Source of the DNA: an archaeon
GTDB lineage: Archaea; Nanobdellota; Nanobdellia; Pacearchaeales; GW2011-AR1
Assembly (NCBI GenBank): GCA_043821945.1
Contig: JBDRCH010000005.1
Span: 14,799 to 78,798, forward strand
Direction of reading: 5' to 3'
DNA length: 64,000 nt
The position numbers and the translations under genes are program-made. Position 1 is the stretch's first letter; each line of letters begins with the position of its first letter. The notes beneath the pieces are model-generated. The model did no database searches. It was not told the origin of the DNA and saw only the letters and a program-made list of their open reading frames with translations. Positions 2,087 to 56,001 of the stretch are shown here, in pieces.

Positions 2087-3721
2087 CTAAGAATAACAAG
2101 TATAGGTTATTGGATCAACTGATAAACGACGCACAGCAATAGAGTTATAAAAACAACCACCTTCAGAAGAACAGATAAATAATGAATTGCCTATTAAACT
2201 TTCTGCATCTATTTCATAATCCCACAAAGGCATACTCAAACTAATAGTATCATCCTCTTTTGAATTCACAATCTCACTACTAGAAAAAATAGCATTATAT
2301 GCATCAACACCTCCAGAATAAATAGTTACTGAGGGAGAATGAATTTTACTAATTAATTTTAAATCTATTTGACCAGAATAATCATCCAAAAACTTTAAAT
2401 TAAATTTTAAATTAGTCCCTTCACATTCAAGAGACTCTATAAAAAATTCAATAGGAACTTTAACACTTTCTTCAGTTACAACTGATGAACTATATTTCCA
2501 TAATTCACAGGTTTTTGCAGGTGACCTAGTATATAATGGTACCCCCTTATTATAATAATCATATTCACCCCTTATGTAATTTCCAGAAACAACATCTAAA
2601 CATATTTTATATTCTAAAATAAATCCTTCTTCTACTCGAGGAAACCCATATCCACTTAAAACAACAGTACCAAGATCACTTTCTAATTGAGACATCTTAT
2701 TTTCATCAATTGTGAAAAAGAATTCATAACAGGGCTTTCCCCCATAAGAGTTTTTTCCAAGATATTCAAATGATGAAACTTCCTCAAAATGATCTCTAAA
2801 AAAATAAAGGATATCTTTCTTCATTAAACTATCAAGTTTATCAAAATTAAGTCTTTGTTTTGTGCAGATCGTCATATCACCATTTGCTGAACAATCTAAA
2901 ATTTGATTTTCTATAAAATAAAATTCTTCAGGAGGAGCAATGCCTCCATAAGCCCCAACTACTTTTTTTACTTTTCTATCAAGTGAATAAACATAACCAT
3001 AAGGATCATATGCATAATAACCATCAGGAATCTGTTCACTTTTTTCAGCAAGTAATTTAAAAGTTTCTTCAGCAGTAGTAAATTTAATTTCTCCAGGAAT
3101 AACTTGATCAGGGATATTATCTGCAGAAACAAAATTTCTTCTACAATTTATTTTTTCAGAAGCTTCTCCAGTATGGGAATTAAATTCCATTGTAGTATCA
3201 CCCTCTTCAAACTCATCTTTTTCAAGTTTTGAATTTAAAACAAACCAGTATATTGATGCTGCTGTATCACCAGCACCTAAATTTTCCATTTGAGTAATCA
3301 CTGCTTCAGTATGATGTTCTAAAAAATCACATTCAATATACCTATTGTCTTGCTGATCACTAACAACACAAGCATTACCTTTTTTTTCTTTAATTGAAAA
3401 TTCTTCTTTTTCATTTCCACCAACAACAATTATTTTTTTATCACCACATTTCTTCAAAGCTTTTGTCATACACTCAATTTTTTCCAACGCATCTTCACTC
3501 ACTTCTGATCCATAACCAATTCCCATCATACTTTTCAGATTATATAATTCTATCTCTCCACAACTATCGCCACTAAAAAGAGAATTGCTCTCACTAGAAT
3601 CTCTAGAAGAAGGATTACTAGTCTCTGAATCTCCAGATCCTTTAAAGATAAAAATTCCACCAATTATAGCTACAACAATAATTCCTACAATAACACCCAT
3701 TCCAATTGCTCCTTTTTTCAT
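2087..3721 (-). CDS. Hypothetical secreted/membrane-anchored protein (544 aa)
   Basis: N-terminal hydrophobic helix followed by a Ser/Asp-rich linker; long ORF with compositional coding signal; no motif I recognise. Confidence 0.4.
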   Translation of the reverse strand: MKKGAIGMGVIVGIIVVAIIGGIFIFKGSGDSETSNPSSRDSSESNSLFSGDSCGEIELYNLKSMMGIGYGSEVSEDALEKIECMTKALKKCGDKKIIVVGGNEKEEFSIKEKKGNACVVSDQQDNRYIECDFLEHHTEAVITQMENLGAGDTAASIYWFVLNSKLEKDEFEEGDTTMEFNSHTGEASEKINCRRNFVSADNIPDQVIPGEIKFTTAEETFKLLAEKSEQIPDGYYAYDPYGYVYSLDRKVKKVVGAYGGIAPPEEFYFIENQILDCSANGDMTICTKQRLNFDKLDSLMKKDILYFFRDHFEEVSSFEYLGKNSYGGKPCYEFFFTIDENKMSQLESDLGTVVLSGYGFPRVEEGFILEYKICLDVVSGNYIRGEYDYYNKGVPLYTRSPAKTCELWKYSSSVVTEESVKVPIEFFIESLECEGTNLKFNLKFLDDYSGQIDLKLISKIHSPSVTIYSGGVDAYNAIFSSSEIVNSKEDDTISLSMPLWDYEIDAESLIGNSLFICSSEGGCFYNSIAVRRLSVDPITYTCYS

Positions 3722-7013: not shown

Positions 7014-8057
7014 CTAACTCAACCACTCACTAAGCCCCTTTTGTTTTCTCTTATCAACAACTTCCCTTAACTTTTCAAGTTGTTTCTCAACTCTGTCTTC
7101 TGAGAAATTATGCCTTTCAATTAAAATTTCTTTGATTTTATCCTCATTAATTTTTGGGAAATTAAAATCCACATCAATAACTTTTGGCTTATGAAACAAT
7201 TCAAAAATTTCTTTCCAATCAAATCTATCTTGTTCTGGTAAACTCAGAATTTGTTCCTCAACACTCTCAAAAATAAAAATAGGTTGCTTGTATTTCTGAA
7301 CAATCTGCAATGCTTTTTTTTGCCCGATTCCAGGAATGCCCTTTGGATTATAATCTGTTCCAACTAAAATTCCTAAACAGATTAACTGATCTAAATTTAT
7401 TTCTAGAGAATTCAAAACTTTTTCTAATTCAATTAATTCGGGTTTAACTTCAACCCAACCTGAAAAAGTTTTTCTCTTTCTTGCCAAAGTTAAATTTTGA
7501 ATTAATCTTGAAGCACCAAAAAGAAGACTATCATAATCTTGGCTAACACTTGCATAAATTCCTTCTTTAACTCGAGAAAGGTAAGCAGCTTCTGCCTCTC
7601 CTTCACTAGGAGCTTGCACAACACAAATTCCCATTGCTTCTAAAAGTTCTTTACTCTCTTCAATCATCTCATCATTCAATCTCAAAAGCTGACTTCCATA
7701 TCTTCTCATTCCCCAAATATCTTCAATTTGTTTTGCGCCTTCATATCTCTCTTCAGCAATATCTCTCATCACTTGCCTTTTTTCATGAGTCTTCAATTTC
7801 AAATCAGGAGCTTCACCATCAAAAACATAAACTAATTTCATACCCTTAGAAAGCAATGAAATATTTCTATAAAAAATTCCAGAAAGATGACTTGTGATTC
7901 TCTTTTGATTATCCATTAAAGGAGTTCCATCAACCTGCCGAATCGTAGACAAAAACTGATACAAAACATTAAACGCATCAACACAAAGAGTCTTGCCTCT
8001 CAAACCCTCAACTTCAAGTTCTCTTCTAGGCATAATATCACGAATATTTAGTCCCAT
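7014..8057 (-). CDS. fen: Flap endonuclease FEN-1
   Basis: N-terminal XPG-N motif (GLRGKTLCVDAFNVLYQFL), I-domain, H3TH, C-terminal PIP-like QKGLSEWL. Confidence 0.9.
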   Translation of the reverse strand: MGLNIRDIMPRRELEVEGLRGKTLCVDAFNVLYQFLSTIRQVDGTPLMDNQKRITSHLSGIFYRNISLLSKGMKLVYVFDGEAPDLKLKTHEKRQVMRDIAEERYEGAKQIEDIWGMRRYGSQLLRLNDEMIEESKELLEAMGICVVQAPSEGEAEAAYLSRVKEGIYASVSQDYDSLLFGASRLIQNLTLARKRKTFSGWVEVKPELIELEKVLNSLEINLDQLICLGILVGTDYNPKGIPGIGQKKALQIVQKYKQPIFIFESVEEQILSLPEQDRFDWKEIFELFHKPKVIDVDFNFPKINEDKIKEILIERHNFSEDRVEKQLEKLREVVDKRKQKGLSEWLS

Positions 8058-8093: not shown

Positions 8094-8498
8094 TTAGTGG
8101 TGAGAATTAACTGCTCTTTCATAAGCTTTTTGTAAATAACCGTCAATTGGAAATTTTCCAGATTCAAGTTGAATTGTAATACGTTCTTCCAAAGAATATC
8201 TCTTTTCAGGGTTTTTTTCATTTTTTAATTTAGAAAGGTTTCCCAAAATGATCTTTTCTTTAGAAGTGGGCTTATTAGAAATATTTATAGAACGATTATA
8301 TAGGTTTTCAGCTACCCGATATAACTGCTCTGGAGAGATTTCTTCCAATTTTTTACCATAAATTGAATGATAAAAATTTTTAACCAAACCAAGTTGAGTA
8401 AAATAAGGCATATCTCGAATACAAATATTTCCAAATTCCCTAACAACTTTTCTTGCTTTTTGAATTTCATCATCCCTATATTGTTTCTTTTTTCTCAT
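8094..8498 (-). CDS. Hypothetical protein (134 aa) between fen and polB
   Basis: ORF with coding-like composition; no motif I recognise. Confidence 0.3.
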   Translation of the reverse strand: MRKKKQYRDDEIQKARKVVREFGNICIRDMPYFTQLGLVKNFYHSIYGKKLEEISPEQLYRVAENLYNRSINISNKPTSKEKIILGNLSKLKNEKNPEKRYSLEERITIQLESGKFPIDGYLQKAYERAVNSHH

Positions 8499-8582: not shown

Positions 8583-11033
8583 ATGAAAACCCAATTCATT
8601 CCATTAGACTATGACTACTTTGATTACAACGGAAGAAATTATGCAAAAATAATTGGAAGAGACGAAAAAGGCAAAAGAATTTGCATAATTGACGCCTGTC
8701 CAATTTATCTCTGGGCAATACTAGAAGATAATTTACCAGAAGAAAAAATAAGCAAGATTATTAAAAAAATACAAAAAATAAAATTAGATTTTAAAGGCAG
8801 AAAAACAAAAGTAGAAAAAATAGAAGTCCATGAAAAAAAATTTCTGGAAAAACCAGTAAAAGCACTTAAAATATTCGCAACAAATTACAAAGATTTACAT
8901 GATATTGCAAGCAAATTGGATTTTTCAGAAATAGAAAAAAGGAGAGGATATGATTTAGGATATGCAACTCATTATATAATTGAAAAAAAATTAGAACCTC
9001 TAAATTGGTATGAAATTGAAGGAAAATTATTAAATAACTCAAATGAATTTGGGGGAATAGACACAACTCTTGATGTTGATTTTTGTGTGAAAGTTAATTC
9101 AATATCTAAATTAAAAAAACTCAAGTCATTCATCCCAAAAATCCTCGCATATGATCTAGAAACAGATGAATTAAAAATAGGGCAAGGAGAAATACTAATG
9201 ATCTCTTTAGTTTCAGACAATTTCAAAAAAGTCATAACTTGGAAAAAATCCCAAAATCCTCCTGAATATACTGAATTTGTAAAAGATGAAAAAGAGCTCA
9301 TTGAAAAATTTATTTATTATATTAAACAAATCTCCCCGGATTTTCTTGTAGGATATTTCTCAGATGGTTTTGATCTTCCATATCTCAAGGCAAGAGCAGA
9401 AAAACACAAGATAAAATTAAATCTTGGAATAGACAATTCTCAACCAAAATTCTCAAGAGGAGTTAATCTCACAGGAAGAATAAATGGAATAATTCATATT
9501 GATATATTAAGATTCATAAGAACAGCTTATTCTCAATACATGAAATCAGAAACACTTACATTAAATGAAGTTTCAAAAGAATTTTTAGGAGACACAAAAA
9601 AAGATTTTAAGATAGAACACTCTTCGAAAATAAAAGAAAACTGGAACAAATACTATGAATACAATTTACATGATTCTGTCTTAACGTACCAACTTTTTGA
9701 AAAATTCTGGCCAGATTTATTATCATTTACAAAAGTAATCAAGGAACCAGTTTTTGACACATCAAGATATGGTTTATCAAAATATGTTGAATCATATATT
9801 CTCCATAACTTAGAAAAATTCAATGAAATCCCAGAAAAACGCCCAACACACGAAGACATAAAATTGCGAAGACAAGAAAAAGTCACAGGGGCATTTGTCC
9901 TAGAACCAAAACCAGGGCTCTACGAAAATATTGCAATATTTGATTTTACATCAATGCATACAAGCATAATAATATCAATGAATATTTCAAAATCAACTTT
10001 ACTAGATAAACCTTCCAAAGATTCGTTTTTTATAAAAACAGACAAAGGAGAATTTTATTTTTCAAAAAAAGCAGGTGTTTTCCCTTCTTTGTTTAAAGAA
10101 ATATTTGAAGAAAGAAAAAAATACAAGGCAGAATACAAAAAAAATCCCAACAAAATAACCCTAGCAAGAAGCAATGCTTTTAAATTACTCTCAGCTTCAG
10201 CTCATGGTTATATTGGTTTTTTTGGAGCAAGATATTATTCATTAGAATCATCTGCATCGATTCTTTCTTATGTTAGAAAATTCAACCAAGAAACAATTCA
10301 AAAAGTAAAGGACGCTGGATATGAAGTAATTTTTTCAGACACTGACAGTGTTGGATTTCTAATGAAAAACAAATCAGAAGAAGATATTAAAAAATTCTTA
10401 AAAGAATTAAACACAGAACTTCCAGGAGTAATGGAACTTGAATTAGAAGGATTTTTCAAGAGAGGTCTCTGGGTTACAACTCGAGCAGGAATAGCTGGAG
10501 CAAAAAAGAAATACGCTTTATTAGATCAAAATAAAAAATTAAAAATAAGAGGTTTTGAAACAGTAAGAAGAGATTGGTGCAAACTAGCAAGAAATTTACA
10601 AAACAAAATTATAGATCAAATTCTTAAAAGTGGAAATGAAAAAAAATCATTAGAGTATCTAAAAAAAATCATAAAACAAATCAAAAATAGAGAAATAAAT
10701 AAAGACGATTTAATTATTAGAACACAATTAAAAAAATCACTCTCAGAATACAAGGCGATTTCTCCTCATGTAATAGCAGCAAGAAAAATGCGAGAGCAAA
10801 AAATTCCAATTGAACAAGGAGGATTAATTGAATACTTTATTGCAGAATCTTCATCAAATAAAAAACTCGTTAGAGAAAAAGTTAAGCTTCCTCATGAAAA
10901 TGATCCTTACAACATTGAGTATTATTTAGAAAAACAAATTCTTCCAGCTGTTGAAAATATTTTTCAGATTTTCAATATCAACATTAAAGAAGTTATTGAA
11001 GGGAAGAAACAAATGACTTTGAGAGATTTTTGA
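8583..11033 (+). CDS. polB: Family B DNA polymerase with divergent dNTP-pocket motifs
   Basis: Exo I YDLETDE, Exo II YFSDGFDLPYL, Exo III YNLHDSVLTYQL, motif A DFTSMHTSIII, motif B KLLSASAHGYIGF, motif C FSDTDSV, KKKYA, C-terminal PIP-like QMTLRDF. Confidence 0.9.
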   Translation: MKTQFIPLDYDYFDYNGRNYAKIIGRDEKGKRICIIDACPIYLWAILEDNLPEEKISKIIKKIQKIKLDFKGRKTKVEKIEVHEKKFLEKPVKALKIFATNYKDLHDIASKLDFSEIEKRRGYDLGYATHYIIEKKLEPLNWYEIEGKLLNNSNEFGGIDTTLDVDFCVKVNSISKLKKLKSFIPKILAYDLETDELKIGQGEILMISLVSDNFKKVITWKKSQNPPEYTEFVKDEKELIEKFIYYIKQISPDFLVGYFSDGFDLPYLKARAEKHKIKLNLGIDNSQPKFSRGVNLTGRINGIIHIDILRFIRTAYSQYMKSETLTLNEVSKEFLGDTKKDFKIEHSSKIKENWNKYYEYNLHDSVLTYQLFEKFWPDLLSFTKVIKEPVFDTSRYGLSKYVESYILHNLEKFNEIPEKRPTHEDIKLRRQEKVTGAFVLEPKPGLYENIAIFDFTSMHTSIIISMNISKSTLLDKPSKDSFFIKTDKGEFYFSKKAGVFPSLFKEIFEERKKYKAEYKKNPNKITLARSNAFKLLSASAHGYIGFFGARYYSLESSASILSYVRKFNQETIQKVKDAGYEVIFSDTDSVGFLMKNKSEEDIKKFLKELNTELPGVMELELEGFFKRGLWVTTRAGIAGAKKKYALLDQNKKLKIRGFETVRRDWCKLARNLQNKIIDQILKSGNEKKSLEYLKKIIKQIKNREINKDDLIIRTQLKKSLSEYKAISPHVIAARKMREQKIPIEQGGLIEYFIAESSSNKKLVREKVKLPHENDPYNIEYYLEKQILPAVENIFQIFNINIKEVIEGKKQMTLRDF

Positions 11034-47257: not shown

Positions 47258-48235
47258 ATGGAAAAGGGGTTATACTTATCAACATTAGTTTTTATTTTTT
47301 TGATTAATCTTGTTAGTTCAGATATCGGGGTTTTGGGTTCAGATGGAAAAAATTATTCGATTGTTAATCAAGGTGAAGACTTTGAATATAATTTGATGAT
47401 TAGAAACAACCAGCAGATTGGATCAAATCTTTATGTAACTCAAGTAAATATAATCCTTCCGACTCATCTTAAATTCAAACAAGGAACAGAATACACAAAT
47501 GCACTTTATGAAAATTTTTCAAACACAAGTTCAGTATTAAGCTGGAGTAACCTAACTGGTTTTCTTATTGCTGAAGAAGAAACAAAAAATTTCAAATTTA
47601 CAGCAAACACAAACACTGAAGATAATTTTACAATAGGTATATGGGCAAGAGACCCTTCAGGACAATCTATTTCAGAATTTTATGTAAACATCAATTTAAC
47701 ACAAAGTCCTTTAGGGTGTGTTTCTAATTGGACTTGTACAGACTGGTCTGATTGCACAGGAGGATTTCAAACAAGAACGTGTGAAGATGAAAATGAATGT
47801 GAAAATGAATCAGGAAAGCCTCTTGAAAGAGGATACTGCTCTTCAACAGAATGTGTTCAAAAATGGAATTGTACAAAATGGTCTGAGTGTATAGGGGAAT
47901 CTCAAATAAGAAGTTGTGTTGATACAAATTTATGTGGAAATAATTCACAAAAACCACTAGAATCACAATCATGTACTCCAACAACAAATTGCATTTCCCA
48001 ATGGAGTTGTGGAGAATGGAGTAAGTGTATAGAAAACTCTCAAATAAGAACATGCGCTGATATAAATAAATGTGGAGAGTATGAAACTAAACAAGAGACA
48101 AAAAATTGCAAAAGAGATGCCCTATTAATTTTTATAATAATAGTCATAATCTTAATAACAATAACAATAATTGTAACAATAATAACAATAGAAACTATAA
48201 GAAAAAATTCATATGAAAAAATTGAAACTCAATAA
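47258..48235 (+). CDS. Surface protein with signal peptide, four tandem ~45-aa Cys-rich repeats and a C-terminal TM anchor
   Basis: repeats C..W.C(T/S).WS.C...Q.R.C.D.N.CG; C-terminal LLIFIIIVIILITITIIVTIITI. Confidence 0.5.
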   Translation: MEKGLYLSTLVFIFLINLVSSDIGVLGSDGKNYSIVNQGEDFEYNLMIRNNQQIGSNLYVTQVNIILPTHLKFKQGTEYTNALYENFSNTSSVLSWSNLTGFLIAEEETKNFKFTANTNTEDNFTIGIWARDPSGQSISEFYVNINLTQSPLGCVSNWTCTDWSDCTGGFQTRTCEDENECENESGKPLERGYCSSTECVQKWNCTKWSECIGESQIRSCVDTNLCGNNSQKPLESQSCTPTTNCISQWSCGEWSKCIENSQIRTCADINKCGEYETKQETKNCKRDALLIFIIIVIILITITIIVTIITIETIRKNSYEKIETQ

Positions 48236-48952: not shown

Positions 48953-50983
48953 ATGGGTGATGAAGAACAAAAGCCAAAAAATGAGGAGTTAATCATTGAA
49001 GCAAAGAATTTTTTTGACTTTAATAAAAAAGAGCTCGGAGAATCAATTCGTAGAGGAAATAATGTAATCTATCTGGATTTTATGAAACTTACAGAATTTT
49101 CAAACATTCTTGCAAATGAAATTCTCTCAAATCCAGAAGAAACTCTAAGGTTAATTGAATTAGCAATTGAAGAAAAAGGTTTGATAAATAATGTTAGAGT
49201 TAGACTGCACAATATTTCAAAATCCCAAGAGATGAAAGTAAGAAATATTCGATCAAAAAATCTAAATGAAATGATTGTAATTGAAGGCATTATAAGACAA
49301 GCATCAGATGTTAGACCCCAAGTAGTAAACGCAAAATTTGAGTGCCCAAGTTGTGGGACAATTATTTCAGTATTACAAATAGAAAAAAAATTCCGAGAAC
49401 CCTCAAGATGTTCATGCGGAAGAAAAGGAGGATTCAAATTAATAAGTAAGGAAATGGTGGATACTCAAAGATTAGTAATAGAAGAATCCCCCGAATCTTT
49501 ATCAGGAGGAGAACAGCCAAAGAGAATCAATGCTTTTGTAAAAGAGGATTTAGTTGAACCAAAAATGGAAGAGAAAACAACTCCTGGAAGCAGAATAAAG
49601 GTGATTGGAATCCTAAAAGAAGTTCCTGTTCCATTAAGTACTGGCGGTCTTTCAACAAGATTTGAATTAGCAATTGAAGTAAACAACTTAATTCCAATGG
49701 AAGAAACTTTTGAAGAATTAGATATTTCTGAAGAAGACGAAAGACAAATTTTAGAATTAGCTGAAGACCCAAGAATATTCGATAATTTAGCCAGAAGCAT
49801 TACTCCAAGTGTATGGGGATATGAAGAAATAAAAAAATCACTTGTTTTACAATTATTTTCAGGTGTTCAAAAAAAGCACTCAGATGGACAAAAAAGTAGG
49901 GGGGACATTCACATCCTTTTAATAGGAGATCCAGGTGTAGCAAAATCAGTAACACTAACTTTTATGGCAGAAATTTCTCCAAAAGGGAGATATGTTGTCG
50001 GAAAAAGTGCAAGTGGAGCAGGACTCACAGCAACAGTAGTTAGAGATGAATATTTAAGAGGATGGAGTTTAGAAGCAGGCGCAATGGTTTTAGCAAACAA
50101 GGGTTTAGTCTGCATTGATGAATTAGAAAAAATGGACCCTCAAGATAGAAGTGCAATGCACGAAGCAATGGAACAGCAAACTATAACAATTTCAAAAGCA
50201 AATGTACAAGCGAACTTAAGAGCAGAAACCTCTGTTTTAGCAGCAGCAAACCCAAAATTCGGGAGATTCGACCCTTACCAATCAATTGCTCAACAAATTG
50301 ATTTACCCCCAACTCTAATAAATAGATTTGACATAATCTTCACATTAAGAGACATTCCAGACAGAGAAAAAGACACAAGAATTGCAACTCATGTTTTAGC
50401 AGAACACCAAGAAAAAGGAGAGAATATGTTAATCCCAAGAGAATTATTTAGAAAATATGTTGCTTACGCAAAACAAAGAATAGTTCCAAAATTAAGTGAA
50501 GAAGCAGTTGAAGAAATTAAAAAATTCTACATTGATTTAAGAAATCGCCCTGTTTCTTCAGAAAGTGCAGTAAGACCAATCCCCATTTCAGCAAGACAAC
50601 TACAAGCATTAGTAAGAATGTCAGAAGCTTCAGCAAAAATAAGATTAAGCAGTAAAGTAACAAAAGACGATGCAAAAAATGCAATAGAAATAATGAAATA
50701 TTATTTAATGCAGGTAGGTTATGATTATGAATCAAAAACATTTGACATAGATAGAATCTCCACTGGAATTCCAACTTCACAAAGAAACAAGATAATAGTA
50801 GTAAGAGAAATAATAACTGAACTTGAAAACAAAATTGGAAAAATGATTCCAATAGAAGAAATTGAAAAAGAACTTGAAACAAAAATGAGTAAAAACGAAA
50901 TTCACGATTCAATAGATAAACTGCAATCTTCAGGAGACATTTTCAAACCTAAGAGGGGATTTGTTCAGAAAACTAGTAGTTAG
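48953..50983 (+). CDS. mcm: MCM replicative helicase
   Basis: Zn finger CPSCG..CSCG, Walker A IHILLIGDPGVAKS, Walker B CIDELEKMD, arginine finger, C-terminal winged helix. Confidence 0.92.
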   Translation: MGDEEQKPKNEELIIEAKNFFDFNKKELGESIRRGNNVIYLDFMKLTEFSNILANEILSNPEETLRLIELAIEEKGLINNVRVRLHNISKSQEMKVRNIRSKNLNEMIVIEGIIRQASDVRPQVVNAKFECPSCGTIISVLQIEKKFREPSRCSCGRKGGFKLISKEMVDTQRLVIEESPESLSGGEQPKRINAFVKEDLVEPKMEEKTTPGSRIKVIGILKEVPVPLSTGGLSTRFELAIEVNNLIPMEETFEELDISEEDERQILELAEDPRIFDNLARSITPSVWGYEEIKKSLVLQLFSGVQKKHSDGQKSRGDIHILLIGDPGVAKSVTLTFMAEISPKGRYVVGKSASGAGLTATVVRDEYLRGWSLEAGAMVLANKGLVCIDELEKMDPQDRSAMHEAMEQQTITISKANVQANLRAETSVLAAANPKFGRFDPYQSIAQQIDLPPTLINRFDIIFTLRDIPDREKDTRIATHVLAEHQEKGENMLIPRELFRKYVAYAKQRIVPKLSEEAVEEIKKFYIDLRNRPVSSESAVRPIPISARQLQALVRMSEASAKIRLSSKVTKDDAKNAIEIMKYYLMQVGYDYESKTFDIDRISTGIPTSQRNKIIVVREIITELENKIGKMIPIEEIEKELETKMSKNEIHDSIDKLQSSGDIFKPKRGFVQKTSS

Positions 50984-51089
50984 AATTTACGTTAACATAC
51001 TATAAATTAGAGTACTATTGATTACCTCCTTATTATAAGATTATCAATAATTTACTATTGATAATCTAATGTTAATTGCAATCTTGCCC

Positions 51090-51359
51090 TTAGATATCTC
51101 TAGCAGAAATAAAATTATAATCTCCTAAAGGACCATCAACAAAAATCAATTCTTTGTATATCCCAATAAATTTTTCTGATAAATCAGGATTTATTGCTAC
51201 AATTGTTGCATATCGATTCCATCTTGGTTCTCCTGGGCCCCCCATATTTTCAGGTAGGTTTTCATATGTCCTGCCTATCTTCACAGGTATGTCACCAAGT
51301 TCATCCCTTAATAGATCTGTTAATTCTGTGGGTATTGTAAATGTTTGTTGTTGATTCAT
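51090..51359 (-). CDS. Hypothetical protein (89 aa)
   Basis: ORF only. Confidence 0.3.
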   Translation of the reverse strand: MNQQQTFTIPTELTDLLRDELGDIPVKIGRTYENLPENMGGPGEPRWNRYATIVAINPDLSEKFIGIYKELIFVDGPLGDYNFISARDI

Positions 51360-51430
51360 AATAAACAGAGATTATCTGAATTATATAAATTTATCGGCCA
51401 AGATTGCAACTTCTTCGTCGCTTCGCTTCT

Positions 51431-51448
51431 CGACCACGCTGCGCTTTC
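51431..51448. repeat. GC-rich 18-mer CGACCACGCTGCGCTTTC, copy 2 (extended similar block ~51410-51535 with repeated CTTCG motifs)
   Basis: identical to 43538-43555; CCACTTCG recurs at 51523-51530. Confidence 0.7.
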
Positions 51449-51765
51449 GCTTCACTCGTCGGGGCGTATAACAAGAATTTAACGGAAAAATGCTCGGCTC
51501 GGGCTTCACCCAAATTTTTCTTCCACTTCGTTCCAGAAAAACTTCGTATATCTCTAACGTTATTCTAAACCACCTATTAACTCATAAATATTTAAAAACT
51601 CTAAAAAATTTTTCCTTATATTAAAAGATATTTTAAATCGCAAGAAAATAAAACAATTAAATTAAGGGAACTTCATTTCACGCGATTTTCTAAGGAGGCT
51701 ATTGAAGAAATTGCCTCGCAGGAACAAGAAGAGAGATCCCAAAGAACCACTTAGGTTCTTTTAAT

Positions 51766-52395
51766 ATGGTTGAAGATAAAAAATTCAAAAGACACATTGC
51801 ATACAAGTTTAGAATCGGAGACTTATTAATTGGAAAGCCTATTATTGATGGGGAGAGGTTTTCTTTTTTAGAATTAGGAAACAAACAAATAGTAAGAGTA
51901 AATGTAATTGGAAACATAATAGATAAATATGAAAGTGAAGGAGAATCCAGATTCACATCATTCACATTAGATGATGGATCAGGACAAATAAAATTAAGAG
52001 TATTTGCAGATGCAGTAGACAAATTTAAGAACATAATCCAAGGGCAAACAGTTCTTGTCATAGGAATATTAAGAATATGGAACAATGAATTATACATCAC
52101 TCCTGAAATTATCAGGGAACAGGATCCAAAATATCTCTTAATAAGAAAAATAGAAATTGAAAAAGAAAGAAACAAAAATTCTACACCTGTTCAAAGAGAA
52201 CAAATAAATGCTATCAAAGATAAAATCCTTGAAAAAATAAAAAATTCAGAAGAAGACGGAGGAATTGAAATAGACAAATTAATCCTTAATATGCGAGATC
52301 TCTCACCAGAAATGATTAACCAGGAAATTCTAAAGCTTCTTGAAGAAGGGATTATCTTTGAGCCTAGACCTGGAAAGGTAAGGTGGTTGGGGTAA
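51766..52395 (+). CDS. RPA32-like OB-fold ssDNA-binding protein with a C-terminal winged helix
   Basis: OB segment VRVNVIGNII...FTLDDGSGQIKLRVF...VLVIGILR; C-terminal wH; downstream of mcm. Confidence 0.55.
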   Translation: MVEDKKFKRHIAYKFRIGDLLIGKPIIDGERFSFLELGNKQIVRVNVIGNIIDKYESEGESRFTSFTLDDGSGQIKLRVFADAVDKFKNIIQGQTVLVIGILRIWNNELYITPEIIREQDPKYLLIRKIEIEKERNKNSTPVQREQINAIKDKILEKIKNSEEDGGIEIDKLILNMRDLSPEMINQEILKLLEEGIIFEPRPGKVRWLG

Positions 52396-52506
52396 TTTTT
52401 AACATAATTAACTCACTTTCCTAAGCTTATAATTATCTAAAATCATTAACTAACAAATCAACTAACGCCTTGAGCAACTATTACTTAATCCAATCATATT
52501 TTATTC

Positions 52507-54066
52507 TTAGCATCCATTTTTCCATTCACCAATCCCAATCATTAAATCACCGAGAGTTACTGTTCCTGATTTCCAATCTCCAATATAACTCATTAATTCA
52601 GAAAGACTAACATCTCCACTTGTATCAGAATCAGCTCCTGATTGACATGTTCCTGAACCTTCTTCATTCATACATAAAGAACTACAACCATCCTCACTAG
52701 CAGTATTTCCATCATCACACTCCTCACTTCCTTCAATTATCCAATCTCCACATGTCGGATAAGTCAGAGGATGAGGATATGTATATGGAGTGTAACCTGG
52801 TTTTTCTATAAGATTATAATCTCTATTCTGCTGAATCCAATCTGCCATATTTTGTACAACCCCACATTCATCATCACAACTTCCTCCAAGATCCACTACT
52901 CCAATATTAGTAAAACTCCTTTGGTTTCCTAAAAAGTTATTTCCCCAAATATAAAGAGGTTCTGAATCTTGATTTTGACCTCTTCCTATCTGATCATAAG
53001 AGGGATATCCCTCTCCTGGATTATTAATTGTATTGCAAGCGCATTTTTCATAACTAGCTCCTCTTATTGTAGCGGCATTACACCAATCTTCATCAGACCT
53101 ATAGTTAGTTAGTCTAATATCATAATTAAGACTTCCATCATTGATAATATTATTGTTATAGACTACCCCGCTTCCTCCTCTAAGAAACATGAAATCAGTC
53201 TGGCTAAAAGAAGAGTCTATATAGAGGTTATTCTCATAAATTTCATACCAACGGGTTGATCCTTTAATATTACCACAAAAACCATGAGCATCAATGTTTC
53301 CGTTATGCACATCATTATAACGCAGGACATATCTTGCTCCTCCAAAACCCGCTATAATATGATGTGCTCCTGTAGGATTCACATAATTATTAATAAAAAC
53401 ATTATTCTCTACAAATATTGAATTATCTGTTCCAACATTTGTTGGGTTGGTCCAATGTTCAGATTCTCCTGTAACCTGTATTGTCTCTTTACCTGCAGTA
53501 TCAAAAGTACAGTTATTAACAATTGCATAGGGACCACTTATAACTATCGCAGAACCTAAAACCCAATTATCATTCATGTAACCCTCACTAAATTTACAGT
53601 TATCTATCCTAACAATTGCATCTGTTGAAATTCCTATTACATTAATATGGCTAACTGCACCTACATTTGTTGTTGATCCCTTAAACCAAATACCAGTCAC
53701 CCTTATCTCGTGAGAATCATCACTTCTTATTTCAAACATTCCATCATATTCTAAAAAGGGTTTTGTATTTATTATAACTGTGCCCCCCATATCTGCTCCT
53801 GCTCCTTGAATTGTTATTCCTTTTCCAGATATAGAAACATCAGGAATTCCATCCCATTCACATTCTCCAGCAGGGATTCTTACAGTATCTCCATCAACAG
53901 CAGAATCAATACATTCTTGAACATCTTGTTGATTACAAGTATCTGCCTGCCATAATCCTTCTCCCATATTCTGACATGCTGCACTAACACCTCCACTAAA
54001 ACTAACAAAAAATATTCCAACCAATAAAAGAATTATCAACCTCTTTGTAACCTCTAAGTTATTCAT
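52507..54066 (-). CDS. Secreted right-handed beta-helix protein with a myxo-type Cys-rich repeat (CGDW...EECDDGN...DGCS..C) and a dockerin-like C-terminus
   Basis: signal peptide; repeated N-rich beta-helix rungs; CGDWIIEGSEECDDGNTASEDGCSSLC; DSDTSGDVSLSELMSYIGDW/GTVTLGDLMIGIGEW. Confidence 0.5.
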   Translation of the reverse strand: MNNLEVTKRLIILLLVGIFFVSFSGGVSAACQNMGEGLWQADTCNQQDVQECIDSAVDGDTVRIPAGECEWDGIPDVSISGKGITIQGAGADMGGTVIINTKPFLEYDGMFEIRSDDSHEIRVTGIWFKGSTTNVGAVSHINVIGISTDAIVRIDNCKFSEGYMNDNWVLGSAIVISGPYAIVNNCTFDTAGKETIQVTGESEHWTNPTNVGTDNSIFVENNVFINNYVNPTGAHHIIAGFGGARYVLRYNDVHNGNIDAHGFCGNIKGSTRWYEIYENNLYIDSSFSQTDFMFLRGGSGVVYNNNIINDGSLNYDIRLTNYRSDEDWCNAATIRGASYEKCACNTINNPGEGYPSYDQIGRGQNQDSEPLYIWGNNFLGNQRSFTNIGVVDLGGSCDDECGVVQNMADWIQQNRDYNLIEKPGYTPYTYPHPLTYPTCGDWIIEGSEECDDGNTASEDGCSSLCMNEEGSGTCQSGADSDTSGDVSLSELMSYIGDWKSGTVTLGDLMIGIGEWKNGC

Positions 54067-54129
54067 AAAAATATATCACATTTGCAATTTAATAATGTTT
54101 CTAAAGAATTTGCTCTGCTAATTTAACGG

Positions 54130-54402
54130 GTGTTAATCGGTAGATTTTTAAGTAACATTTTATTTTATATAATTATGAATAAAGAGCTCCCTATAAAATC
54201 TTGGAGATGGATTTTTTATATTCTTGGTTGGATTTTTGGAGCATTAAATCTTGTGTTTTGGGCTTGGCAATATTTAATGTATATGGGAGATGAAAAAAGT
54301 GACAAATTTATTTCTAATCAATTCCATAAGAGAGTATATTATTGGGGGGTTTTATTTACAGCGATAATCTTAATAACAATTATTTTTGTGTTGATAGATT
54401 AA
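54130..54402 (+). CDS. Small membrane protein (90 aa)
   Basis: two hydrophobic helices. Confidence 0.3.
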   Translation: MLIGRFLSNILFYIIMNKELPIKSWRWIFYILGWIFGALNLVFWAWQYLMYMGDEKSDKFISNQFHKRVYYWGVLFTAIILITIIFVLID

Positions 54403-55279
54403 TCAATTCCAACCATTTATTATCAGAATTTAATTTTAAGTCAGTTGCTAATTCATAAGGGCATCTTTTAAGAGTTTGATGTTTAGTTATGAAATTGTAA
54501 TAAACTGCATAACCTTTCATAATACTATTTACACTCTCTACACTTCCGTGTAATCCTCTGAAAGTTTTTGTTCTGTGTCTTATTTTATTATGTAACCTTT
54601 CTATTAAAATATTAAAACCTTCACCTTTAGAAGCATTTACTTGATTATGCTCTACTCCGAAATATTTGTTTTTACTTTTTAATCCAAAAGTTTTTCTTAT
54701 TGCATTTTCATAAGTTAAAAGTCCGTCAGTAGTTACGACTTTAATCTGTTTTTCTGTTTTCTCTTTCGCTTTCATTAGAACAGATTTTATCTCATCTTTC
54801 CCTCTTGACTTACAAAATTCAGAAGCTACCATAAAACGAGTTTTAGTATCTATACTATCAATAAACCAATTTTCTTCTTTTCCACCTTTAATATCCTTTC
54901 TTCGTGAATATTGCATTTCATCTATTTGTAATTCACTTCCTGTTTGAAGTTTAAGTTTATCTGTGAAATTACTAATTTGATTTGAATACTTTACAACCCA
55001 TTTATAGATTGTAACATCTGAACTATTATGGGGGTAAAAAGCCCTTAGATGTTCTCTTATTTTTCTTGTGCTTACTCCTCTAAAAAATAAGTCAAGACAT
55101 AAAGTAATCTTTTGAGGATTATTTCTCATTCTCTTGAAGCCGTCATTCAAAACAAATCTGTGAGAACATTCCTTACATTTGTATCTTTGAATTAATCCTC
55201 TGTTCTCTGTCTTTCGTTTGCCGTCTTTCTTGATTAATCTTGACTGACATTTTGAGCATATTATTTCTTTGTTTTTCAT
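54380..55279 (-). mobile_element. IS1/IS1595-like DDE transposase with an N-terminal zinc finger (probable start at MKNKEII; the listed ORF's first 24 codons translate the upstream repeat)
   Basis: CSKCQS...YKCKECSHRF finger; LQIDEMQYSRRKD...WFIDSIDTKTRFMVA...VVTTDGLLTYENA DDE pattern. Confidence 0.6.
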
Positions 55280-55308
55280 ATTATAATTAGGCACCCGAAC
55301 TATATAAA
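55275..55308. repeat. 34-nt promoter-like repeat, copy 1 (ATAATTAGGCACCCGAACTATATAAATGTATCGG), 29/34 identical to copy 2
   Basis: lies immediately upstream of the transposase start on the coding strand; contains TTTATATA about 21 nt before the ATG. Confidence 0.65.
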
Positions 55309-55404
55309 TGTATCGGTACCCGAATATATTTATATTATTATATATAATCATATAGTTTCAGAAAAATAGGAAAGGTTTATATATGTTATCATATATGATA
55401 ATAT

Positions 55405-56001
55405 ATGAGTAATAATGATAATACACTTTTCTGTTATAGATGTTATCACCTTTGGAAAAAAAGGAAATCTGTTGCCCCAAAATATTGCCCTAAGTGTAAA
55501 AGTCCTTATTGGAATAGACCAAGAAGAAAAGTAAAAAAAGATATAGTATTAAAAATGGAAGAAATGATTATAAAAATTCACGATAGAATAATTGAATTAA
55601 GTGGTGGGGAAAAGGGTGTCAGAGAAGAAGGTGGAATATACAACTCTACATTTAAATTAATTAACCATCAATATAAAAATCAAAGAAATCCTATTAAAAT
55701 AGGAGCATTTGCTCTGAATGAGTTTGCTAAAAGACATTATTTTGTTGATGGAAATAAAAGAACAGCTTACGCAATCTCTAAAATATTTATGTTAATTAAT
55801 AGATGTCATTTGATGATAGATTATGGTGAGGCAACAAATTTTATGCTTAAAGTTGCAGAGCACAAAAGCAAAGTTACTTATGATGATATAAAAATTTGGC
55901 TTACAAAATATTGTAAAATTATAGATAGAAAAGATGTGGAAAATTATTTAAACAAAGCATTCGTAAATGTAACATTAGGGAGTGGAGAAAATGGCGAATA
56001 A
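55405..56001 (+). CDS. Fic/Doc-family protein (Doc-like toxin) with an N-terminal zinc-ribbon fusion
   Basis: HYFVDGNKRTA (HxFx(D/E)GNxR Fic/Doc motif); N-terminal CYRC...CPKC. Confidence 0.65.
   Translation: MSNNDNTLFCYRCYHLWKKRKSVAPKYCPKCKSPYWNRPRRKVKKDIVLKMEEMIIKIHDRIIELSGGEKGVREEGGIYNSTFKLINHQYKNQRNPIKIGAFALNEFAKRHYFVDGNKRTAYAISKIFMLINRCHLMIDYGEATNFMLKVAEHKSKVTYDDIKIWLTKYCKIIDRKDVENYLNKAFVNVTLGSGENGE

Follow-up and report, generated by a model that had tools for sequence, protein, structure and literature searches.

A clade of archaeal family B DNA polymerases with histidines at the steric-gate and motif-B tyrosine positions and a most likely repacked nucleotide pocket

Introduction

The tyrosine of motif A and the asparagine and tyrosine of motif B are textbook near-invariant residues of family B DNA polymerases, and they underlie the accounts of sugar discrimination and minor-groove checking in these enzymes. 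All three are replaced, with histidine at both tyrosine positions, in the B3-type polymerase encoded at 8583..11033 (+ strand) of a 64,000-nucleotide stretch from a DPANN archaeon of the order Pacearchaeales (GenBank assembly GCA_043821945.1, contig JBDRCH010000005.1, positions 14,799 to 78,798 of the forward strand), hereafter called the window. The locus thus raises the question of whether the motifs were misread, whether the gene is a spare or dead copy, or whether a working polymerase can hold its incoming nucleotide in this way. An initial annotation, made from the letters alone, had suggested either altered sugar or nucleotide selectivity or a lineage-specific compensating change elsewhere. 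The analysis described here points most likely to a compensated and repacked deoxynucleoside triphosphate (dNTP) pocket, in a protein that is very probably the ordinary chromosomal B3-type polymerase of its lineage, catalytically active, proofreading and tethered to PCNA.

Motif register and catalytic residues

The KOD polymerase sequence, an in-register match to residues 1-774 of PDB 1WNS_A (1757 bits), was used as the ruler for MAFFT alignments. Motif A (9942..9974, + strand, as for all features of the gene) reads DFTSMHTSIII; it retains the catalytic Asp454 (KOD D404) and has His459 (codon CAT, 9957-9959) in place of the sugar-stacking steric-gate Y409 of the usual SLYPS. Motif B (10182..10211) reads KLLSASAHGY in place of Kx3NSxYG, with Lys534 (KOD K487) retained, Ser537 for Ala490, Ala538 (10194-10196) for Asn491 and His541 (10203-10205) for Tyr494. 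The MAFFT register was H459=Y409, T460=P410, S537=A490, A538=N491 and H541=Y494. The same register was returned by the HMMER alignment to Pfu PolB (2jgu/3a2f), where the D-F of motif A and the K-L-L..S..G-Y of motif B were identical and both histidines were scored as conservative ("+") opposite the Pfu residues. No canonical Tyr or Asn was found a few residues off the motif A and B sites in the alignments to Pfu and KOD. A mis-registration, which the initial annotation had named among the findings that would refute it, was thus ruled out by both methods; the motifs that it quoted were all present where it had placed them in the open reading frame, and the loss of the gate tyrosine and of the motif-B asparagine and tyrosine stands. 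Its account of motif A calls for one refinement. The accompanying loss of Pro410 and the change of Leu408 to Met are not specific to the variant but are older family traits, apart from the histidine switch, because sister lineages with the canonical tyrosine already read S-M-Y-[S/G/A]-S.

The remainder of the enzyme was intact, as had been proposed. The exonuclease motifs Exo I (YDLETDE, 9150..9170; D191 and E193 = KOD D141 and E143, conserved as D in 364/369 and E in 363/369 full-length relatives), Exo II (YFSDGFDLPYL, 9354..9386; the D264 region is the equivalent of KOD D215) and Exo III (YNLHD, 9660..9674; Y360 and D364 = KOD Y311 and D315) were all present. Motif C (DTDS, 10338..10349) supplies D586 and D588 (KOD D540 and D542), and these two carboxylates together with D454 were invariant in 369/369 relatives. 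In KOD numbering, the triphosphate ligands R460, K464 and K487, the third-metal residues E578 and E580, and K591-K592-K593-Y594 were canonical, the last lying in the KKKYA primer-terminus motif (10503..10517), ahead of which the family has a specific 8-residue insertion (RAGIAGA). The protein ends in QMTLRDF (11010..11030), a PIP-box-like tail (Qxx[LIM]xxF-COOH). Tails of the form Qxx[L/I/M]xxF were present in 102 of 120 close homologues, and similar ones end the relatives P0127 and P0121. This tail suggests that the polymerase is tethered to PCNA.

By fold, profile and catalytic residues the window protein is a family B, B3-type polymerase despite lacking the SLYPS tyrosine and the NSxYG motif. 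The gene is a single frame of 816 codons that starts with ATG and stops with TGA, and its product matched the Pfam families PF00136 (DNA_pol_B; E 4e-49, 168 bits against a cut-off of 23) and PF03104 (DNA_pol_B_exo1; E 1e-25, 90.6 bits). The best solved relatives in a HMMER search of the PDB were the B3 enzymes of Thermococcales, Pfu, KOD, Tgo and 9°N (E 1e-113 to 1e-100; Pfu 2jgu/3a2f ~1e-113, KOD 1wns 3e-109, with 366-384 bits for Pfu and KOD), followed by an end-to-end alignment with P. calidifontis PolB3 (5mdn; E 1e-74, 255 bits). Escherichia coli Pol II (E 2e-41, 145 bits), eukaryotic Pol delta (118 bits), S. solfataricus Dpo1 (E 5e-23, 85 bits) and Pol alpha were weaker matches. The protein is thus nearer to B3 references than to B1, B2, PolII-like or eukaryotic ones as judged from PDB bit scores rather than from a formal phylogeny of all groups. 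It is not a B7 (PolII-like) polymerase, since E. coli Pol II scored far below the B3 enzymes, and the NCBIfam Pol II models scored under their cut-offs. An AlphaFold2 model built with 43 homologues (mean pLDDT 87.8, pTM 0.81) has the family B fold and superposed along the whole chain on the KOD, Tgo, Pfu and 9°N structures with TM scores of 0.81-0.89. The database record of the exact protein is "MAG: DNA-directed DNA polymerase [archaeon]", and close homologues are labelled Pacearchaeota, Nanoarchaeota or Woesearchaeota.

The Thermococcales enzymes share with the window polymerase the full-length fold, about 30% identity, the exonuclease motifs, the catalytic aspartates, R460/K464/K487, KKKY and the C-terminal PIP-like tail. 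They differ from it at Y409 (His), P410 (Thr), N491 (Ala), Y494 (His), T514 (Leu), Y384 (Val) and I521 (Asn), in the 8-residue insertion ahead of KKKY, and at the positions of the uracil pocket; the host differs as well, being a mesophilic archaeon of low guanine-plus-cytosine (GC) content (~30%). In the N-terminal domain (8583-9000), KOD P36, P90, V93, E111 and P115 of the archaeal uracil read-ahead pocket correspond to I, Y, L, G and G in an alignment that is weak in this part, and stalling at template uracil may be absent from the window polymerase.

Distribution of the histidine variant

The combination of His409, Ala491 and His494 (H/A/H) was found exactly in 133 of the 369 full-length relatives, which come from independent assemblies, and the 120 best database matches (at least 69% identity) were all His/His. 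In a neighbour-joining tree, every His/His sequence of the Pacearchaeota-type family fell into one clade with a short stem branch, nested within a family whose sister and basal branches are Tyr/Asn/Tyr. The histidine state therefore defines a clade, which was the first thing that the initial annotation had wanted to see settled. Among the scanned loci, 12 had D-F-[T/A]-S-M-H-T-S with K-[L/V]-L-S-A-S-x-H-G-Y-[I/V], whereas 13 had S-[M/S]-Y-[S/G/A]-[S/T], accompanied in 12 of them by K-L-[L/I]-[A/V]-N-[A/S]-x-Y-G-Y-Q (locus L025 stops short of motif B); motif A read S-Y-W-P-S in two more.

Codon usage within the clade spoke for long retention. His459 was encoded by CAT in 6 and CAC in 7 cases, His541 by CAT in 8 and CAC in 5, Ala538 by GCT, GCA or GCG and Ser537 by TCA, TCT or TCG. 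Because the His, Ala and Ser codons vary synonymously, the pocket residues have been held through much synonymous change, and purifying selection maintains H/A/H throughout the clade. With 133 of 369 relatives carrying it and both codons in use at each histidine, the state is far beyond chance or sequencing error. A change from Tyr to His takes one transition (TAT to CAT), and a change from Asn to Ala takes two nucleotide changes. A sequencing error or pseudogene was ruled out by the hundreds of independent assemblies, the synonymous codon turnover and the intact reading frame, and a reassignment of CAY codons by an invariant histidine (H729 of the PHV motif) that uses the same codons.

In some members of both the His/His and the canonical clades, an intein of ~400 residues splits the DTDS of motif C after its first Asp, ahead of TDS (L022:3103-6798, L026:3713-7429, P0032, P0042, P0049, P0078 and P0430); the window gene has none.

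Sites that change together with the pocket

A comparison of 127 His/His with 14 canonical members of the family across ~800 columns gave only 12 columns with a fixed difference. Written as KOD position with the residue of the canonical sisters and then that of the His/His clade, these are 349 (M, L), 384 (Y, V), 409 (Y, H), 414 (V, I), 490 (A, S), 491 (N, A), 494 (Y, H), 510 (A, S), 513 (T, I), 514 (A, L), 517 (A, V) and 521 (I, N). In the window protein the change at 384 is Val434 (9882..9884). Positions 510, 513, 514, 517 and 521 (S557, I560, L561, V564 and N568) are spaced i, i+3, i+4, i+7 and i+11, as on a helix, and in the AlphaFold2 model they lie within a palm helix of residues 554-577 (10242..10313). 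One face of the palm helix beside motif B has therefore been re-tailored. Side-chain volume fell by ~106 cubic angstroms over the pocket residues and rose by ~128 over the helix face, with a sum of about -1 for all 12 sites, and we infer that such a near-zero net change is what compensated repacking would predict. The coupling was strictest at position 514 (Leu561, 10263-10265): among the 369 relatives, leucine stood together with His, Trp or Thr at 494 in 137 of 137 cases and with Tyr494 in 0 of 222. The lineage-specific compensating changes that had been offered as one explanation of the variant were thus found, at KOD 384, 490, 510, 513, 514, 517 and 521.

The canonical sister polymerases of Pacearchaeota and Woesearchaeota (for example L006, L014 and P0121) set the baseline for these differences. 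They are 55-68% identical to the window protein and share its FEN1-PolB-RsmB-methionine aminopeptidase-CDC48 neighbourhood, S-M at 407-408 and the ARSNAFK stretch; like it, they lack Pro410 and have the inserted residues ahead of KKKY. In contrast, they have Tyr409, Asn491 and Tyr494, and small residues (A/T) at 513, 514 and 517.

A second origin and other non-canonical pockets

The same four residues were found in a distant part of the DPANN archaea. The polymerase P0127 (GCA_964603525.1, contig CAZRVI010000001.1, GC 0.283) is only ~38-40% identical to the window protein and reads DFRSLHPSII and KIIAAGFHGY. Its neighbourhood comprises RFC, RFC, HerA, TYW2, FEN1, PolB, methionine aminopeptidase, CDC48, RadA, topoisomerase and a metallophosphoesterase, with neighbour proteins 40-63% identical to those of the window, and this shared order identifies it as the orthologue of the window gene within a remote DPANN lineage. 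A profile search added five members of this Woesearchaeota clade (P0428-P0432) that are 61-70% identical to P0127; all five have 409H, 491A, 492G, 494H and 514L, and the six sequences, 61-100% identical among themselves, have all catalytic residues intact. Of the next 114 relatives, most of which bear the label Woesearchaeota or Nanoarchaeia, 109 combine Tyr/Asn/Tyr with Thr or Ala at 514; the other six have a single Trp at 409 or 494, no His at either site and Asn491 in every case. Discriminating columns derived independently for this clade again included 409, 491, 494 and 514.

The Woesearchaeota clade resembles the window polymerase in 409H, 491A, 494H, 514L (and 513I in 5/6) and in syntenic position, but its L408 and P410 are retained, its residue 492 is Gly, and the changes at 384, 510, 517 and 521 are missing from it. 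Since many canonical sequences separate the two clades in the tree, their H/A/H/L pockets have independent origins, and His409/Ala491/His494/Leu514 appears from these sequences to be a recurrent solution that has arisen twice.

Other departures from Tyr/Asn/Tyr were seen among the orthologous DPANN polymerases. A Trp-gate variant has motif A D-F-x-x-[Y/F]-W-P-S (Trp409 with Tyr/Phe408) and a canonical motif B (L009:10001-12460 of BPGA01000001.1, L026, P0123, P0125, P0150, P0488, P0497 and P0542). Three Woesearchaeota relatives (P0478, P0502 and P0543) read KD[M/L]AN[S/A]FWGYM, with Trp494, Leu514 and Leu384, and form a third lineage in which Leu514 goes with the loss of Tyr494. P0230 (locus L154:8001-10433) has His409 with Asn491, His493 and Tyr494, and P0124 has Tyr409 with Ser491 and His494; both are possible intermediate states.

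Orthology and copy number

The gene order HerA, TYW2-type methyltransferase, FEN1 (-), PolB (+), RsmB, PUA, methionine aminopeptidase and CDC48 is common to the His/His and the canonical loci. The divergent FEN1 flap endonuclease gene (7014..8057, - strand; Pfam XPG_N/XPG_I) is a conserved neighbour in His/His, canonical and Woesearchaeota loci alike. A scan of species-dereplicated genomes gave 28 loci from 28 assemblies, one PolB match per genome and none with two copies. Because synteny is shared with canonical loci and each genome has one copy, the window gene is orthologous by position to the canonical PolB gene that related DPANN archaea carry, and is not a spare copy. An extra paralogue was rejected on the same grounds, and the synteny and the single copy in each of the 28 sampled assemblies contradict the case that the initial annotation had put forward as fatal to it, in which a canonical second copy exists and the window copy is an inactive paralogue. 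The surroundings are those of an ordinary cellular chromosome: the window holds RFC, a HerA-like ATPase, FEN1, CDC48, topoisomerase I, Nre, RadA and ScpB, as well as DNA ligase, TBP, MCM, an RPA-like OB protein, FtsZ, tRNA synthetases, ribosomal protein L15e and two tRNAs.

These results bear on the idea of a polymerase-dead protein retained for its exonuclease activity or in a scaffolding role, comparable to the C-terminal module of Pol epsilon or as was once proposed for archaeal B2 enzymes. It is true that three pocket residues which rank among the most conserved in family B are gone. However, the catalytic Asp motifs, the triphosphate-binding Arg and Lys, the third-metal Glu and KKKY are invariant, the substituted residues are themselves invariant under synonymous turnover, and no second PolB was found in the same sampled genomes. 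The hallmarks of archaeal B2 polymerases, loss of Exo I and Exo III and of a catalytic Asp in motif C (PMC7544198), are absent as well; the window protein has both Asp residues of motif C, in contrast to the single one of B2. A dead polymerase is thus very improbable.

Several features of the surrounding DNA were recorded on their own account. A 134-residue open reading frame with no Pfam match (8094-8498, -) lies between FEN1 and PolB; the same slot holds a small open reading frame in relatives and a Hydrolase_2 protein in the P0127 locus. Two more frames with no Pfam match encode 544 residues (2087-3721, -) and 325 residues (47258-48235, +), the latter between DNA ligase and TBP/MCM in a cluster of replication genes. 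Local GC rises to 0.33-0.34, against ~0.30, at 50000-56001, where a 519-residue DUF4215 protein (52507-54066, -), a DDE transposase (54380-55351, -) and a Fic-domain protein (55405-56001, +) are encoded, and this segment may be mobile or acquired.

A proposed mechanism for the repacked pocket

Structures of family B enzymes define what the replaced residues do. In KOD, the sugar of the dNTP packs on Y409 with C2' nearest the ring, and N491 stacks on the nascent pair, hydrogen-bonds the beta-phosphate and can bond the 3'-OH (PMC5718519). Y409 and Y494 both line the nucleotide site of Tgo (PMC7763228). In RB69, Y567 controls fidelity and makes a water-mediated check of the minor groove, N564 contacts the beta-phosphate by way of water, and Y416 and Y567 share one network of ordered waters (PMC3564110, PMC3799440).

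We propose that the pocket for the incoming nucleotide and the nascent base pair was rebuilt as a coupled module. His459 (His409 in KOD numbering) would take the place of the Tyr ring that stacks beneath the deoxyribose, and His541 (His494) that of the Tyr that reads the minor groove through water. Histidine is the one residue that retains both a planar ring and a hydrogen-bonding atom, and the two imidazoles would assume the ring stacking and hydrogen bonding of the two phenols in an enzyme that still makes DNA. Ala538 (Ala491) would make room by eliminating the Asn, which otherwise stacks against the nascent pair and forms hydrogen bonds with the beta-phosphate and 3'-OH, and the larger side chains of the palm helix, Leu561 (Leu514) with I513 and V517, would fill the freed space. 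A smaller gate and a lost Asn would leave a looser, more polar pocket around the sugar and 3'-OH, from which we predict weaker exclusion of ribonucleotides or sugar-modified nucleotides, and perhaps altered base fidelity, relative to a Tyr/Asn/Tyr orthologue. We thus favour, with a probability of about 0.55, the reading that the polymerase is active and that its selectivity for sugar and 3'-OH is somewhat relaxed.

Precedents for such effects come from altered polymerases. The Y100H change of human PrimPol dismantles the gate and admits ribonucleoside triphosphates (rNTPs) (PMC8961649), KOD N491S (Kod-RS/RSGA) shifts the enzyme toward threose nucleic acid, and the RNA-reading KOD variant RTX carries 16 mutations that include Y384H, T514I and I521L (PMC9738464). 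Of the 12 sites that discriminate the clades, three are also mutated in RTX (hypergeometric P = 0.0014); this comparison was post hoc, and shared proximity to the active site accounts for part of the overlap. The engineered KOD and Tgo enzymes and PrimPol Y100H are altered at the same positions (491, 384, 514, 521) or in the same way (gate Tyr to His), and sugar specificity is altered there; those changes, however, are laboratory or disease mutations, whereas the ones described here are natural, fixed and co-adapted and stand in cellular chromosomal genes. Full-text searches of a literature library yielded no paper in which variation of the steric gate was connected with DPANN polymerases or with other natural archaeal PolBs.

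Several points weigh against relaxed selectivity. Activity and selectivity are both inferred from sequence, the canonical comparison set was small (14 sequences) and the tree is a neighbour-joining tree only. In RB69, backbone amides also hold the 3'-OH and beta-phosphate, and loss of the Asn side chain may be tolerated with no change in specificity. Histidine is moreover a natural steric gate in family C, where His760 of Pol III alpha and His1275 of PolC are found, and by analogy sugar discrimination may be unchanged. A scarcity of compensatory routes, as opposed to adaptation, could also lie behind the convergence.

The main alternative is a functionally equivalent packing, in which H/A/H/L is compensated and near-neutral, His459 gates the 2' position as the family C histidine does, and selectivity, fidelity and role are essentially unchanged. 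The comparison with family C is one of analogy and not homology, since in E. coli Pol III alpha and PolC the imidazole likewise adjoins C2' of the dNTP as a gate but the fold and family are unrelated. That histidine retains an aromatic ring and hydrogen-bonding capacity, that the net volume change of the 12 sites is about zero, that the stem branch of the clade is short, and that the gene is in orthologous position with all other motifs unchanged are all as expected for an equivalent pocket. However, the same four residues arose twice and were fixed without reversal in more than 130 sampled sequences, which drift alone does not predict. The change of Asn491 to Ala also takes two nucleotide changes and loses a ligand of the beta-phosphate and 3'-OH, the gate Tyr to His change unlocks rNTP use in PrimPol, and substitutions at KOD 491, 384, 514 and 521 alter substrate specificity in engineered enzymes. 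We regard an equivalent packing as rather unlikely.

Cellular role

The initial annotation had reasoned that the only PolB in the window is presumably the replicase. No second PolB was found in the window, but the replicase role does not follow from this, and the enzyme may act as main replicase, work alongside PolD or serve in repair. PolD is regarded as the main replicase in archaea other than Crenarchaeota, PolBs of the B3 type may function in replication or in repair, and a PolII-like B7 PolB has been reported in Pacearchaeota and Woesearchaeota (PMC7544198). Two Pacearchaeota are reported to carry genes for the PolD subunits DP1 and DP2, next to a Pol III-like gene and to phage genes (PMC8204110).

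Neither PolD nor a second PolB turned up when the window and ~370 kb of related loci were searched. DP2 in particular, sought with a P. abyssi fragment as query that was checked against 6HMS_B, was absent from the window and from loci L001-L028. A DNA pattern for NCDGDED, the catalytic motif of DP2, had 0 matches in viral contigs. An AT-rich version with low-GC codons had 120 matches in metagenomes (loci L029-L148), of which 118 were DP2 genes, so that the pattern is highly specific; none of these 118 loci was Pacearchaeota-like by tetranucleotide profile, which is weak evidence. The supplementary tables of PMC7544198 and PMC12680538 had no Pacearchaeota rows. Candidate DP2 loci were set aside as follows: the low-GC group L128 proved to be Asgard, look-ups of DP2 clusters returned Heimdall and Methanocaldococcus among other taxa, and the DP1-DP2 locus L149:8596-13300 (JBMXQU010000007.1) had no genes in common with Pacearchaeota loci. 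An intein immediately before the NCDGDED motif was observed in several DP2 genes (L030, L033, L039, L092 and L132).

The window polymerase might be a specialised repair or gap-filling enzyme beside another replicase, either PolD or a B7 PolII-like PolB, in which a relaxed pocket would be tolerated or useful because the enzyme is not the bulk copier. The standing of PolD as main archaeal replicase outside Crenarchaeota, the repair role that B3 enzymes can have, as in T. kodakarensis, and the reports of DP1/DP2 in two Pacearchaeota and of B7 PolB in Pacearchaeota and Woesearchaeota are consistent with this. In contrast, neither PolD nor a second PolB was seen in a 64-kb window that does hold RFC, FEN1, MCM, ligase, an RPA-like protein and topoisomerase, nor in the related loci; the Pacearchaeota PolD genes of the literature adjoin phage-like genes; and the tetranucleotide comparison, weak as it is, points the same way. 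We consider a repair role quite possible, though short of even odds. It concerns the cellular role and is compatible with either view of the chemistry, relaxed or equivalent.

Discussion

The H/A/H/L pocket looks like a working alternative design for a family B polymerase. Two independent, long-lived and clade-wide replacements with defined compensating residues constitute a natural test of histidine as a family B gate. For enzyme engineering, 409H/491A/494H/514L is a four-residue recipe that is transplantable into KOD, Pfu and Tgo.

A broader proposal is that a widespread DPANN group copies or repairs its chromosome with a natural PolB that has neither Tyr gate nor Asn clamp, and that would readily use ribonucleotides or other non-canonical sugars, or would extend RNA and copy RNA-containing templates. 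Such an enzyme would be an adaptation to nucleotide scavenging, scarce dNTP pools or loss of PolD, reached convergently at least twice via the same four-residue switch. We hold this proposal to be unlikely. DPANN archaea have been described as being without nucleotide biosynthesis, to differing extents, and a preprint on chimney Pacearchaeota is mixed on this point, its abstract stating that nucleotide biosynthesis is lacking and its results reporting many such genes as present. A link between nucleotide supply and the PolB pocket is possible and worth testing, and through it the chemistry of replication may be tied to the nucleotide-scavenging lifestyle of DPANN archaea.

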